From the NCBI GenBank assembly GCA_964016885.1, contig OZ024743.1, forward strand, positions 335,234,001-335,298,000: a stretch of 64,000 nt of DNA, read 5' to 3'. The notes beneath the pieces were generated by a model. The model saw nothing but the letters and a program-made list of their open reading frames with translations, made no database searches and had not been told where the DNA came from. Shown one piece after another: positions 1,921 through 57,078 of the stretch (position 1 is its first letter; each line of letters begins with the position of its first letter). Made by a program: the position numbers and the translations under genes. Source of the DNA: Eledone cirrhosa. Lineage: Eukaryota.

Positions 1921-2370
1921 ATTCGTTTTTGAATTTGTTTTGCGAGATTTCTTATCTGAAAACGTGTGTTGAAACAGATATTGTTATACTTTGGGAGGGT
2001 CATGCTGCCAACAAAAACACACGCACCTGTTGGTTTTCACTTCAATTTATTATAAATTTCCGGTTGGTTGGTAGGTTGGATCGATAACCGGAAGGATGCT
2101 TATATATTGTCAAAGATCTTCTGTCACACTTTCTGTGACCTCCTCAGTGACTAGGAATTTGTGTGACGCTCTTCTTTGTTCTTTCCTACACCTAACCTTA
2201 AATCTAGTCACTGAGGAGGTCACATAATGTGTGACGAAGGGCTTTGACAATATATAAACAACCTTCTCGTTATCGAACCAACCAGCCAAAACGGAAACTT
2301 ATAATAAATTGATCTGAAACAAATAAGTGCGAGTGTTTTTATTGGCAACCTGACCCTTCCAAAGTATAAC
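1921..2370. mobile_element. Non-coding foldback element (PLE 3'-end derivative) with two divergent degenerate hammerheads
   Basis: Diverged inverted arms at about 1982-2154 and 2204-2370, flanked by microsatellites. HHR-like gtca-CTGAGGA-g-gtcaca/tgtgac-GAA..tgac at 2207-2248 (+) and 2109-2151 (-). Confidence 0.7.
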
Positions 2371-2439
2371 TATATATATATATATGTATATATATATATA
2401 TATATATATATATATATCTGGAGACTTAACTGAGAATAG

Positions 2440-2521
2440 ACTCCCTGATGACGCAATGAATTCTCGACAGTTGGATTACGTAACTGTCTTTATCCCATTG
2501 CAGAAACTAATTAGTTGGAGT
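2440..2521 (+). ncRNA. Type I hammerhead ribozyme (copy 1)
   Basis: Stem I actcc/ggagt; core CTGATGA; stem II gcaatg/cattgc with inner hairpin gacagtt/aactgtc; GAA; palindromic stem III actaattagt; GUU cleavage triplet. Confidence 0.85.
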
Positions 2522-3002
2522 GAAAATTTAAGTAAGTAAGCAAAAAAATTTTTTTTTAAATTTAAAAAAAAAAATATTTTCTTATTTTACGTCGTTTATA
2601 TTATTGTTCTGCATTCTCCTGCATTGAACCACCTAGGTACTATGACATAACCTGTGTATTTGCTAGCATGGGCGTGCATCTGTGCGCTTATGTTAGTTGA
2701 TATATTAAATTATCTATATTTATCTCCAAATCACTGATTTGTCGAGCAACCTTGCCAAAACCACTTCTAAAAAAATTTTTTTTAGGGTGTTAGTAGGCGT
2801 CAGTCATCTTACCATCCCATTCCTTCTAACTAGCCTCTGTGTCACGTGATTGATTCTTTAGAATCGGCCATTTGACCTGAAGCAGTGGGAATTTCGGTAC
2901 ATAGAATCCAGTCCTCGCCAGCTGTTCGATCTACCGAATTATTATTATTTTTATATGAGCCGCCAGTGTCTGCGCATTGCCTGGAGACTTAACTGAGAAT
3001 AG

Positions 3003-3084
3003 ACTCCCTGATGACGCAATGAATTCTCGACAGTTGGATTACGTAACTGTCTTTATCCCATTGCAGAAACTAATTAGTTGGAGT
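3003..3084 (+). ncRNA. Type I hammerhead ribozyme (copy 2)
   Basis: Same sequence as 2440-2521. Confidence 0.85.
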
Positions 3085-3562
3085 GAAAATTTAAGTAAGT
3101 AAGCAAAAAATTTTTAAAAAATTTTTTTTAAAAATATTTTCATATTTTACGTCGTTTATATTATTGTTCTGCATTCTCCTGCATTGAACCACCTAGGTAC
3201 TATGACATAACCTGTGTATTTGCTAGCATGGGCGTGCATCTGTGCGCTTATGTTAGTTGATATATTAAATTATCTATATTTATCTCCAAATCACTGATTT
3301 GTCGAGCAAACTTGCCAAAACCACTTCTAAAAAAAATTTTTTTGGGGTGTTAGTAGGCGTCAGTCATCTTACCATCCCATTCCTTCTAACTAGCCTCTGT
3401 GTCACGTGATTGATTCTTTAGAATCGGCCATTTGACCTGAAGCAGTGGGAATTTCGGTACATAGAATCCAGTCCTCGCCAGCTGTTCGATCTACCGAATT
3501 ATTATTATTTTTATATGAGCCGCCAGTGTCCGCGCATTGCCTGGAGACTTAACTGAGAATAG

Positions 3563-3644
3563 ACTCCCTGATGACGCAATGAATTCTCGACAGTTGGATT
3601 ACGTAACTGTCTTTATCCCATTGCAGAAACTAATTAGTTGGAGT
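3563..3644 (+). ncRNA. Type I hammerhead ribozyme (copy 3)
   Basis: Same sequence as 2440-2521. Confidence 0.85.
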
Positions 3645-3781
3645 GAAAATTTAAGTAAGTAAGCAAAAAATTTTTTTTAAATGTTTTTAAAAAATATTTT
3701 CTTATTTTACGTCGTTTATATATATATATATATATATATATACACATATATGTATATATATATATATGTATATATAATATA

Positions 3782-4650
3782 CTAGCAGTGGTACCCGGCG
3801 TTGCACGGGATAAGGTATTTTGGAAGGCGGGCCGCCAACAGACCTAATCGTGGAAAAACTGCATGACTGGACAATATGTAAAGAAAATAAACCGAATACT
3901 CTGATGGCTGGATAATCTTTAAGATTTTCCTCGATGAAGCAGGAAAAATGCAGGTTTTCACCTAATGCCGGCCCTAGTGGATCAAGAAAATGAATTTTTT
4001 TATGTGCTTAATATACCTTGAAATTTCGGGAAAATTGGCTAGATGTAACGCCTCCAAAAAGCCATAAAAAGCTGAAAAAATGAAGTTTTTCACCTAGGCC
4101 ATGAAAAATTTCGATTTTCTTTGCTCGCGGTATGAGGAAGAGACTGACTAATACATAGTTACAATTTCAAGGAAATCCGTCTGACGTAACGTCTCAACCC
4201 CCCCCCCCCCCAAGCTTAAAAAACGCAGTTTTTCAACGAATGTTGAATTCTTTTATGTGGATAACACTCCATGAAACATAAGTAATACAGATGTAAAGTT
4301 TGATGTAGATCGGTTAGGTAGTTCTCGAGTTTTAGGGATTCAAACTCAAAGACACACACACAGAGACACACATCCTCAGGGAAGTGACGTAATGCAGACA
4401 GCCAGACATACAGACAGATATTATAAGGGCGCGACGTGATATGTATGTATCTAAAAAGAGAAAGGCTAAGAATTATAGAGAGAGATCGCTAAATCGCCTA
4501 ATGTGGTCCCTAGAGCATTGAACATCTGAAATTTCTTTTGCTTAGAACACTCCCTGAAACAGAAGTATTACATGTTTAAAGTTTGAAAACAGTCGGTTGG
4601 GTGGTTCTCTCACACACACAGACAGACATCCTCAGTTTTATATATATAGA
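3782..4650 (-). mobile_element. Non-autonomous Helitron
   Basis: On the minus strand it begins TCtatatatataaaactgaggatgtctgtctg and ends with the hairpin cccgtgcaacgccggg followed by CTAG. It is inserted between A and T. Confidence 0.8.
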
Positions 4651-54585: not shown

Positions 54586-54767
54586 TTTCTTGAGAGCAAA
54601 CAAATTTTGCTTTCAATCATCAGAAAGAAAAAATCCTGGTGTATTTAATGACATTGGATTTTAAAAACAAAAATATAATCTATCTAGATAGATTATATTT
54701 TTGTTTTATAAAATCCAATATCAATAAATACACCAGGATTTTTTTCATTCTGATGATTGAAAGCAAA
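54586..54767. mobile_element. Palindrome (54606-54767) with outward-facing minimal hammerhead cores lacking stem II
   Basis: Centre ctatctagatag; both arms read CTGATGA-tt-GAAA-gcaaa; the left arm continues tttgc-TC. Confidence 0.6.
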
Positions 54768-54974
54768 TAATATATATATACATATATTAATATATATATA
54801 CATGTATAAATAATATATATATATATATATATATATATATATATATATATATATATAAGAGAGTATTGAAGTTTGCTTGAAGCATTGTGGAATAAGTTAA
54901 ATTTCTGTAATTCGTTTGGACGCCTCGACAATGCAGATGGGTAAATCTCCGGGTAACAAGATCCGGTGGTGGAG

Positions 54975-55221
54975 AGAGAGATGTAAGTTGGTGTACGTTA
55001 AGATGCGTGGCGTGTATAAGACGTGTAGAGGAATGAAGGAAAGAGCGTAAAGGATAGAAATAAAAATAACAACACGAGAGAGAGTTACCTTGGGAGAGAT
55101 TTAATTGGTAACTCTCTCTCGTGTTGTTATTTTTATTTTTATCCTTTACGCTCTTTCCTTCATTCCTCTACACGTCTTATACACGCCACGCATCTTAACG
55201 TACACCAACTTACATCTCTCT
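54975..55221. repeat. Near-perfect 115-bp inverted repeat with 17-bp spacer
   Basis: 54975-55089 vs 55107-55221, one mismatch seen; no ribozyme core found. Confidence 0.92.
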
Positions 55222-55529
55222 GATTTTATCTCTCTGATTGTAACCAGAGAACTGCATACGGTGGATGAAGTGTTGTATGTGTCCTCTCTAGTTCTTTGGG
55301 GTTGCACATACGGGACACGTATCTCATCATCCGTACCAAATCCGCAATCAGTATGTTGATTTGGGTATGGTCCGAAACAGCTGAGTTTCGGTGGATCAGA
55401 TATTTGGAAGTATTGGGTTTAGCATAATGGGAATGGAAGATTTGTTTTCTGTTATTAATGGTATCTAACCAGAGCTCGGTGTCTAGTACACCCAGATGTA
55501 ATGCATGCGCAAACTAAGCACACAACAAT

Positions 55530-55838
55530 GGCGTAGGACAGAACAAAGGAGAGGCACAAAAACAAAGAAAATAATCCCCACTCATCGAAGAGGCCACAGA
55601 ATGTGTGACGAAAGAACTTTCACAATATATGAACAATCGTCTGGTTGTGGAACCAACCAACTAACCGGGAATTTATAAATTCATAAATTCATAAATTTAA
55701 TTTATAATAAATTGAGGTCAAAGCAACTGGTGCGTGTGTTTCTTATTAGCAACATGACCCTCCCAAAGCATAACAATATCGGTTTCAACACATGTTTTCA
55801 GATAAAGAATCTTGCTAAACAACTTCAGAAACGAAATA
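55530..55838 (+). mobile_element. Solo copy of the PLE 3'-end family of 1921-2370 and 22990-23340
   Basis: tgtgacgaaagaacttt half-HHR and ttattagcaacatgaccctcccaaagcataacaata terminus; a fragment also at 46829-46903. Confidence 0.72.
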
Positions 55839-55865
55839 TATATATATATATATATATATATATAT

Positions 55866-56060
55866 ATAGATGAGATTCTACAGGACTAGAACTGTTTCAT
55901 TCATTTGAAATCATCAGGAATCTGAGATTCCTGATGATTTCAAATGAATGAAACAGTTCTAGTCCTGTAGAATCTCATCTATATTAAAACTGTTATACTC
56001 TGCTATGTATTGAGTACCTTACTTACTGTGGTTACCTCCGATTCAACCCGGAATAACGTA
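55866..56060. mobile_element. Foldback element with two divergent hammerheads (55870-55923 minus, 55924-55978 plus)
   Basis: gagattc-CTGATGA-t-ttc/gaa-t-GAAA-cag..ctg-TA-gaatctc; same family as 21974-22180 in the opposite orientation, inserted in (TA)n. Confidence 0.87.
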
Positions 56061-56211
56061 TATATATATATATATATATATATATATATATATATATATA
56101 AAACATGAATAATAACAGGTAGACATAAAAAGGTAATTTATTCCGAGTGCTGACAAATGTTTCAACCGTAGTTATACAGCCTAGTCATGCTATGTGCAAT
56201 TGATATTTAAT

Positions 56212-57078
56212 AATTATTTGATTGCAGAAACTCAATTTTCAAATGTTGCGACTACCATTTCCTTAGAGCAGAATGGTTAAAATGTAAATACCCTTGTATT
56301 TCTTAAAGGAAATTATACTGCAACCACAAACTGAAGCCTAAATTCTCTCACTATGAAATAACTTAACATTTGAACCCTAGACTGCAATATCGCTTTCTCG
56401 CTAACTAATTCTTCTCAATAACTACTTCCTAACTATATCCCTCACCCTCACACTACAAGCCAATACCCTGCTTATCATTATAAATGGGTACTTGAGTGCG
56501 ATTTGTAGACTACAACTACGAACTCGATGTATCCCCATCTCGTAGCCTTCGTCTGTCTCCTCTCTATCTCTCTTTCTTTCTCTCTCTCCCTTCCCCTCTC
56601 TCTCCCTCTCTCTCTATATATATATATCTCTCTCTCTCGCCCTCGGTCTACTACACTCCCTCTCCACATCTATGAACCTGTTCTCTGTGACAATAAATAA
56701 TCCCAATCTTGACCACATCAACACAATGCCTAAGGGCTGTCACCTTGAGAATAAACAGTAAAATAAAACCCCTACCCCAATATTTTGATTTAGCTATCTG
56801 TATTCTTCAAACCACTCCCTCCCACTTCTCCAACCCCTACATCTCTCTCTCTCTCTCTTCTCTCTCTCTCTCTCTTCTCTCTCTCTCTCTCTTTCTCTCT
56901 CTCTCTCTCTCTCTCTCTCTCTCTCTCTCTTTCTCCCCTTCTTTTTCTCTTCCTTTCTACTCTATCTTCTCCAATAACTTCCTTTAAGAAATACAAGGGT
57001 ATTTACATTTTAACCATTCTGCTCTGAGGATATGGTAGTGGCAGCATTTGAAAAATGAGTTTCTGCAATCAAATAATT
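56212..57078. mobile_element. Foldback with ~100-bp arms carrying degenerate divergent hammerhead-like motifs
   Basis: 56212-56310 vs 56980-57078; right arm tgct-CTGAGGA-..-GAAA-aatgagtt-TC-tgca at 57020-57067. Confidence 0.6.

Follow-up and report, generated by a model that had tools for sequence, protein, structure and literature searches.

Geometry of head-to-head insertions in Eledone cirrhosa favours priming from both sides of (TA)n breaks

A 64,000-nucleotide (nt) stretch of the Eledone cirrhosa genome (contig OZ024743.1, positions 335,234,001 to 335,298,000; hereafter the window) has a G+C content of 37% and contains many microsatellites. A first-pass annotation had reported ten inverted repeats in it, each carrying two divergent hammerhead ribozymes, and had attributed them to Penelope-like elements (PLEs). 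The window was searched against itself by BLAST with microsatellites masked. All ten inverted repeats were recovered (E 5e-17 or better); their arms are 77-99% identical and separated by 0-657 nt. Together with four inversions absent from the first list, they bring the two-armed insertions in the window to 14, in approximately nine families. The geometry of these 14 insertions favours priming from both sides of a break over the published idea of self-priming.

The left arm was correctly assigned to the minus strand and the right arm to the plus strand, as all ten elements are head-to-head, judged by the hammerhead motif or its 3′ half and by the tail. The tail is present on one arm only in 10/10 elements. 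Both outer ends lie within (TA)n in 8/10; element 44612 has this arrangement in part and element 56212 on its left side only. The ten had also been described as differing in sequence. That holds for most of them, but self-BLAST groups them into about eight families: 22042 and 55864 belong to one family (B, 95% identity), as do 50338 and 52521 (C).

Element 1982 (self-BLAST repeat 1983-2370, arms 77% identical) is a family A insertion at 1921..2370 with (TA)n on both sides. Its tailed arm is on the minus strand (~2192 to 1921, core at 2147), its tail-less arm is on the plus strand (~2200 to 2370, core at 2211), and GAAG follows both cores. Family B forms two palindromes. Element 22042 (21976..22179; repeat 22044-22178, arms 98.5% identical) has a tailed minus arm and a tail-less plus arm, with its centre at 22111 in the 5′ strand of stem I and intact hammerhead motifs at 22103(-) and 22119(+). 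In element 55864 (55869..56058; repeat 55873-55975, arms 99% identical) the minus arm is tail-less and the plus arm tailed, the centre is at 55924, and the intact motifs are at 55917(-) and 55931(+). Element 44612 is a family L palindrome (44612..44790; repeat 44621-44747, 93%) centred at 44684, likewise in the 5′ strand of stem I, with the core change U4A in both arms. The family M palindrome 54606 (54541..54769; repeat 54606-54767, 94%) has a zero-spacer centre, TCTAGA, at 54685.5 (63 nt upstream of core position C3) and an intact motif at 54623(-); its right arm stops 17-20 nt past C3. The family D palindrome 52327 (52327..52502; repeat 52329-52436, 93%) is centred at 52382 and retains only GAAA and a palindromic helix III of a putative hammerhead.

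The remaining listed elements are less regular. In the family C palindrome 50338 (50333..50528; repeat 50333-50440, 79%) the junction lies at ~50387-50390 in the loop of domain II, and neither arm has a core. The second family C element is a long inversion (52521..53425; arms 52521-52779/53086-53344, 91.5% identical, spacer 306 nt) with an intact U3:A8 hammerhead motif at 52623 in its tail-less minus arm; the tailed plus arm has a core at 53242 with weakened stems, and the junction lies at least 156 nt upstream of the core. Element 49274 belongs to family I (49133..50223; arms 49268-49615/49879-50219, 93%, spacer 263 nt). Its tailed minus arm runs from 49615 to 49133 with its 5′ end at -27, its plus arm is a partial tandem beginning at 49610, the two overlap by ATTAAT, and the hammerheads at 49588(-) and 49906(+) are degenerate with a long domain II. 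The family E element 56212 (56101..57078; arms 56212-56316/56974-57078, 94%, spacer 657 nt) has a tailed minus arm with a G5A core at 56266 and GAAA at 56163, and a tail-less plus arm (56974-57078) that stops within domain II.

The four additional inversions are of families A, C and F. A family C inversion without duplication at 22209..22355 has no hammerhead core; its arms abut, the tail-less minus arm being unit positions +47..+98 and the tailed plus arm +98..+183. At 43997..44428 a tailed 3′ piece of family F on the minus strand (44074 to 43997) is joined to a plus arm that begins 12-14 nt before a core at 44081, and the arms are mutually non-nested. A family A mini-inversion at 46829..46902, also without a hammerhead, joins a minus-strand piece of 26 nt of tail (unit +228..+253) to a tail-less plus arm of 59 nt (+136..+194), with AAGCA microhomology at the joint. 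Finally, at 55098..55836 a fragment of a Neptune reverse transcriptase (RT) gene on the minus strand (55495 to 55098; 56% amino acid identity to the other RT of the window over 94 columns) lies head-to-head with a family A pseudo-long terminal repeat (pLTR) on the plus strand (~55496-55836, degenerate core at 55585).

The window also contains a Neptune-type PLE (22985..26822, minus strand) with (TA)n on both sides and an open reading frame (ORF) broken by a frameshift and stops. Its RT (25346-24252) gave an RVT_1 match at E 8.9e-5, under the curated cut-off, and among its named relatives a predicted protein of Octopus vulgaris comes closest (71% identity, E 1e-164; 59 matches from 2001 candidates). 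A CxxC linker and a GIY-YIG endonuclease region follow at 24158-23529. The linker, CFNRKCIIC, has the CX2-5CxxC pattern given as a mark of Neptune and Nematis elements in the available text of Craig et al. 2021 (PMC8557442). The GIY-YIG domain was unmatched in the Pfam search; a GIY-YIG-like motif (VYSIRC..TYIGET) with CCHH residues was read by eye, and relatives with PF01541 align along it. The N-terminal part of the ORF (25950-26430, minus) includes ~150 asparagine-rich codons, resembling the asparagine-rich inserts of Adineta Penelope ORFs (PMC3846280).

The 3′ pLTR of this PLE carries a hammerhead-like motif (core 23286) and aligns over the hammerhead and the final 80 nt with family A (1921-2370, 46829-46902 and 55496-55836). 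Family A is therefore tied to a coding PLE, and its polarity is fixed. No homology to the ORF-bearing PLE was detected by self-BLAST for families B, C, D, E, F, I, L and M, which have in common a hammerhead or what is left of one, a tail on a single arm and (TA)n ends. The PLE origin proposed in the first-pass annotation thus holds by homology for family A, whose stubs are 5′-truncated 3′ ends (pLTRs) of a Neptune-type PLE by sequence, and is likely, from architecture, for the others.

A type-I hammerhead descriptor that allowed one core change and the U3:A8 variant (score at least 14) was applied to the window. There were 15 matches, whereas the reversed sequence gave none and three shuffles gave 1, 1 and 2, so the window is rich in such motifs. 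No hammerhead family was found by Rfam among the best 150 of 160 matches at E≤1. Rfam matches to miRNA families score far under the gathering thresholds and were dismissed as products of hairpins and microsatellites. Nine of the 20 arms match the descriptor. An unchanged core (CUGANGA or UUGANAA, GAAA, UH and three helices) occurs in 6/20 arms (22103-, 22119+, 52623-, 54623-, 55917- and 55931+) and is not found in the other 14. Each element had been credited with two hammerheads. Two intact motifs are present in 22042 and 55864, a single family, but not in the other 8/10. The CUGANGA/UUGANAA core is absent from both arms of 50338 and 52327, and the right arms of 54606 and 56212 terminate in domain II. 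Each arm of 44612 has U4A and each arm of 1982 has GAAG; in 49274 the left core is broken and the right has GAAG. In the right arm of 52521 the letters of the core are retained, but the stems are weakened and the descriptor does not match. In 56212 the core and GAAA are separated by ~100 nt, past the reach of the descriptor, and the motif was identified by eye. One descriptor match, 50370(+), was rejected as a chance chimera (U4C) created by the inversion.

Further hammerhead motifs lie outside the listed elements, at 14169, 16957, 18190, 21388, 23286, 45485, 51791 and 54242. Neighbouring hammerheads of different families can converge (17962+ with 18190-, 54242+ with 54623-).

Could the palindromes be products of assembly? 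The arms diverge by 6-23% in 8/10 pairs, the near-perfect pairs being the two family B copies. These copies differ at two loop-II positions, each variant being mirrored in both arms of its own copy, and their centres differ too. Because the arms diverge and the family B copies differ in this way, an assembly fold-back artefact is unlikely, and each family B inversion was likely built anew. A miniature inverted-repeat or Foldback DNA transposon was rejected, as the extra tail is always on one arm and five insertions have non-nested arms. The exact family B motif matched no stretch in a metagenome collection; a search of it with the RT gave 69 matching stretches, of which none was confirmed.

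It had been proposed that a head-to-head unit supplies a sense ribozyme whichever strand is transcribed. Both motifs are intact in only 2/10 elements, and transcription from either side always places the antisense arm before the sense arm. Folding was compared in six cases from four elements. In the read-through RNA the predicted cost of forcing the hammerhead helices was 75-77 kcal/mol for both family B copies on both strands, 25 kcal/mol for 54606 and 108 kcal/mol for 52521; in the sense arm alone it was 0.3-8 kcal/mol. Read-through RNA is thus predicted to form a long hairpin that would block the ribozyme, contrary to the proposal. If the units are transcribed, the prediction is long double-stranded RNA instead of a ribozyme. 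Selection for palindromes that propagate themselves and provide an active ribozyme on whichever strand is read is accordingly very improbable. Intact motifs on both strands of two elements of one family speak for it, but 8/10 elements lack them, the hammerhead fold is penalised by 25-108 kcal/mol, and the two family B copies are unlike each other in their centres and in the variants mirrored between their arms.

The inversion had been placed at or inside the ribozyme, and the quoted centres proved accurate to 1-3 nt. Relative to C3, the junction is at -8 in 22042, -7 in 55864 and -5 in 44612, all symmetric or nearly so. It is at +44/+50, inside domain II, in 50338, and 4-7 nt ahead of GAAA in 52327. 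In 1982 the short arm ends at about -10 and the long arm at about -47. The remaining junctions are at -27 and about -296 (49274), -156 or further (52521), -63 (54606) and -50 or further (56212). The placement therefore holds for both arms in 5/10 elements and for one arm in 1/10, but fails in 4/10, where the junction is at least 27 nt upstream.

Clustering of 5′ ends was examined with 19 ends that have a definable boundary upstream of C3, plus three tandem-array read-throughs. Symmetric pairs were counted once; five motifs without a boundary (14169, 16957, 18190, 21388 and 54242) and ends 3′ of the ribozyme or not passing through it were omitted. Six ends fall in -16..-3 (270 nt of exposure) versus seven in the next 1119 nt (binomial P 0.026, or 0.13 with one end per family); for -30..-3 the values are 0.0065 and 0.027, and over all settings P ranged from 0.0005 to 0.13, with windows picked post hoc and positions entered by hand. 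Some of the positions carry an uncertainty of a few bases: the end at 51775 may lie as far as -20, beyond the narrow window, and a smoothly decaying length distribution would also yield some excess near the core. Within the body of the ribozyme there are four stops in 1272 nt, or 0.31 per 100 nt, versus 2.2 just 5′ of it. These counts hint that 5′ ends are modestly enriched just 5′ of the core and not inside the ribozyme.

A concentration of breakpoints near the ribozyme thus has weak support. Its position does not suit a stall of RT at the ribozyme fold, as proposed earlier, since a polymerase meeting the fold would be expected to stop at its 3′ side or within it. The simplest reading of the clustering is that the copied RNA may start just 5′ of the core. 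Cleavage by the ribozyme was rejected as the origin of the 5′ ends; only the solo copy at 44443 starts near the putative site, ~4 nt before it. A splice site was also considered: the D. virilis intron terminates at helix I in the available text of PMC4209133. AG occurs 4-12 nt upstream in several families, as would be expected by chance.

The evidence on how the units formed comes mainly from their 3′ ends and from the relation between their arms. In families with several copies (A, B and C), the 3′ ends occur at two fixed sites. For family C, position +183 is where the tailed arm finishes in 50333, 22209 and the reference copy; the tail-less arms finish at ~+98..+105 in 22209 and 52521, and 50333 aligns to +90, with TA ~13 nt on. 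Both tail-less arms of family A stop at +169, and those of family B end no more than 8 nt apart. In five insertions (22209-22355, 46829-46902, 43997-44428, 49133-50223 and 55098-55836), of which only 49133 was on the first list, neither arm contains the other. In 22209 the end of the tailed arm at +98 coincides exactly with the start of the tail-less arm, which is the signature of twin priming. Such non-nested arms disfavour fold-back because a cDNA folding back cannot supply sequence it does not contain. Overlaps at junctions were AAGCA (46848-46852), ATTAAT (49610-49615) and ATG (17428-17430).

On this evidence we consider it probable that each head-to-head unit was made by RT priming from both sides of one (TA)n break. 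The GIY-YIG endonuclease would cleave both strands inside (TA)n. One DNA end would then prime cDNA at the far 3′ site of the element, giving the tailed arm, and the other would prime at a second fixed site 28-145 nt further in, giving the tail-less arm. Both cDNAs would halt early, and their 3′ ends would be joined, often by 2-6 nt of microhomology. Symmetric palindromes would arise when both cDNAs reach a common stop. This stop would mostly lie 5-15 nt 5′ of the core and may correspond to where the copied RNA begins; the ribozyme would be a passenger in the insertion. Because both outer ends would be primed 3′ ends of the element, head-to-head is the sole possible orientation; the orientation bias would therefore be uninformative about the ribozyme.

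The (TA)n runs have mirror copies of their own flanks that bear on how such breaks may behave. Exact or near-exact mirrors across (TA)n were observed at 16997-17042/17385-17430 (45 nt), 54468-54489/54540-54561 (22 nt), 46772-46780/46829-46837 (9 nt) and 43203-43658/46318-46773 (456 nt). At 17430 a mirror piece is joined via ATG to a different 5′-truncated hammerhead element, and at 46773 two mirror pieces are joined together. Flank mirrors of at least 9 nt occur at 3/69 (TA)n runs, one of them low-complexity, versus 0.9% in the null. The mirrors, though few, suggest that (TA)n ends, once broken, are able to fold back so that the adjoining flank is copied. Another fold-back is a tail-to-tail palindrome at 54975-55221 (94%, 19-nt loop, no hammerhead) within the Neptune RT fragment; it belongs to an insertion of four pieces that is bounded by the (TA)n runs at 54857 and 55836.

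Several observations weigh against two-sided priming. Six of the ten listed elements (22042, 44612, 50338, 52327, 54606 and 55864) are near-symmetric and fit snap-back equally well, and under two-sided priming the symmetric units need an extra assumption. The nested elements 1982, 52521 and 56212 do not separate the two mechanisms. Non-nested arms could have been left by a deletion that later removed the centre of a palindrome, and there is one exact abutment only. Fold-back does occur here, as in the palindrome at 54975-55221 and the mirrors across (TA)n. The evidence is from one window, in which no parent sequence was identified upstream of most junctions, target-site duplications are unreadable within (TA)n, and architecture, with no linked ORF, is the ground for placing families B, C, D, E, F, I, L and M among the PLEs. 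Finally, the in vitro data discussed below are from the Poseidon clade, not Neptune.

The principal rival is self-priming, in which a cDNA, or an antisense template as proposed by Arkhipova et al., folds at a short palindrome or at the ribozyme and copies itself, with the endonuclease resolving the product at the boundary of the tail. Junction palindromes have been interpreted in print as self-priming (PMC3846280), and the tail as endonuclease resolution in the available text of PMC8557442. It accommodates the six near-symmetric centres, some of which are self-complementary (TCATGA at 22111, TCTAGA at 54685), and a genuine tail-to-tail fold-back is present at 55098. However, it does not account for the five non-nested insertions, nor for a fixed tail-less end that is common to these and the palindromic insertions where a family has both; stops in the ribozyme body are not enriched (0.31 versus 2.2 per 100 nt just 5′), and 4/10 junctions are at least 27 nt upstream. 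As the origin of the units we regard it as rather unlikely. The earlier proposal of snap-back or re-priming is thus disfavoured in its first half as a general cause, while re-priming comes close to two-sided priming. Alternatively, the inversions might postdate insertion and be due to DNA repair or to slippage of replication in fragile (TA)n, separately from retrotransposition. The flank mirrors of 45 and 9 nt, and those of 22 and 456 nt, speak for this. Those mirrors face tail-to-tail across a run. The listed units, in contrast, lie head-to-head from one run to the next, and no mirror source is present in their flanks; moreover, repair would not respect a family-specific second 3′ end. This explanation is improbable.

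The architecture itself is already known. Insertions of endonuclease-containing (EN+) PLEs have an inverted 5′-truncated pLTR, a one-sided tail and head-to-head junction palindromes (Arkhipova et al. 2013, PMC3846280), and in the available text of PMC8557442 the inverted-pLTR architecture is repeated for all EN+ clades. The first-pass statement that PLE insertions often carry an inverted, truncated pLTR is thus in the literature. What the present analysis adds is support from geometry for two-sided priming and, as a weak hint, a stop favoured 5′ of the core. Like EN+ PLE insertions, the units of the window are head-to-head with a tail on one arm, form partial tandems, target (TA)n and have no readable target-site duplication. 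Unlike those published, they are mostly tiny pLTR-only stubs, with tails of ~28-145 nt (most 55-85) versus 30-40 nt, and several have non-overlapping arms that the self-priming reading of PMC3846280 does not cover. In the open literature no report was found of breakpoint clustering at the hammerhead or of twin priming in PLEs; subscription journals were not covered.

The hammerheads resemble those described in the available text of PMC4209133, where paired hammerheads on opposite strands, spaced by 100-700 bp, are already on record, as is the U3:A8 variant: helix III is short and palindromic, an extra base precedes stem II, and the U3:A8 pair is covariant (52623, 17962). Unlike those, several of the putative hammerheads here have 50-100 nt inserts in domain II, and most copies are degenerate. 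Non-LTR retrozymes of animals are non-coding hammerhead units thought to derive from pLTRs (bioRxiv 10.64898/2026.07.22.740005, as far as its available text goes); they are head-to-tail tandems, and the ten listed units, being inverted, are not retrozymes in that sense. A retrozyme-like array does occur at 2418-3718, where a 563-nt non-coding unit is repeated head-to-tail in 2.3 copies (95-97% alike) between (TA)n runs; each unit has an intact type-I hammerhead motif (2445, 3008, 3568), and the 5′ end is 27 nt before the first core. By its sequence it looks like a non-LTR retrozyme.

Other repeats were observed in the window. A partial tandem at 17428-18095 has a 591-nt unit with an intact U3:A8 hammerhead motif at 17962, and its upstream copy is 5′-truncated in domain II. 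An inverted pair at 35847-36103/36665-36923 (96.5%, spacer 561 nt) has arms that run on into different 3′ sequences, the right arm continuing into an intact hammerhead motif at 36945, kin of 21388 and 14169. Around positions 22985, 44081 and 51950, the family F unit has an internal (TA/TG)n tract as its own part, and new stubs repeatedly insert into the end (TA)n of older ones, giving chains of nested PLE ends. Decayed long interspersed elements (LINEs) with apurinic endonuclease and RT domains lie at 14421-16661, 28830-31862 and 6464-7881, and a family resembling short interspersed elements at 4735-5509, 11855-11972, 33491-35238, 41447-41766 and 44835-45039.

Two known systems resemble the proposed two-sided priming. 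In LINE-1 twin priming, both sides of the break prime on the RNA (Ostertag and Kazazian 2001, as described in the available text of PMC2246262), and the abutting inverted segments at 22209-22355 are of this kind. In the window each family keeps a fixed second site, and overlap of the arms often yields palindromes. In LINE-1 inversions generally, by contrast, the second site is variable and the arms do not overlap. Purified Poseidon protein of Anolis cleaves and extends both strands in vitro, two RNA start sites delimit the tail, and hammerhead mutants leave insertion unaffected (Frangieh et al. 2024, PMC11167929, available text). The two start sites of RT that delimit the tail, the AT-rich targets, the extension of both strands and a dispensable hammerhead are shared with the reading proposed for the window. 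Poseidon is of another clade, and the available text of PMC11167929 does not derive an inverted arm from two-sided priming.

There is a broader, tentative possibility, which we hold to be open to considerable doubt: PLEs may insert by obligatory two-ended target-primed RT, and the RNA of many non-coding families may start ~10 nt upstream of the core. Each side of the (TA)n break would be extended independently, either on RNA at one of two fixed positions or by fold-back on the flank, and the ribozyme would mark the template's 5′ end without cleaving it. The origin of tandem and inverted PLE insertions is called undefined in the available text of PMC8557442. If true, obligatory two-ended insertion would explain orientation, tail, palindromes and breakpoint clustering together, and would make the formation of inverted PLE structures testable from genome data alone.

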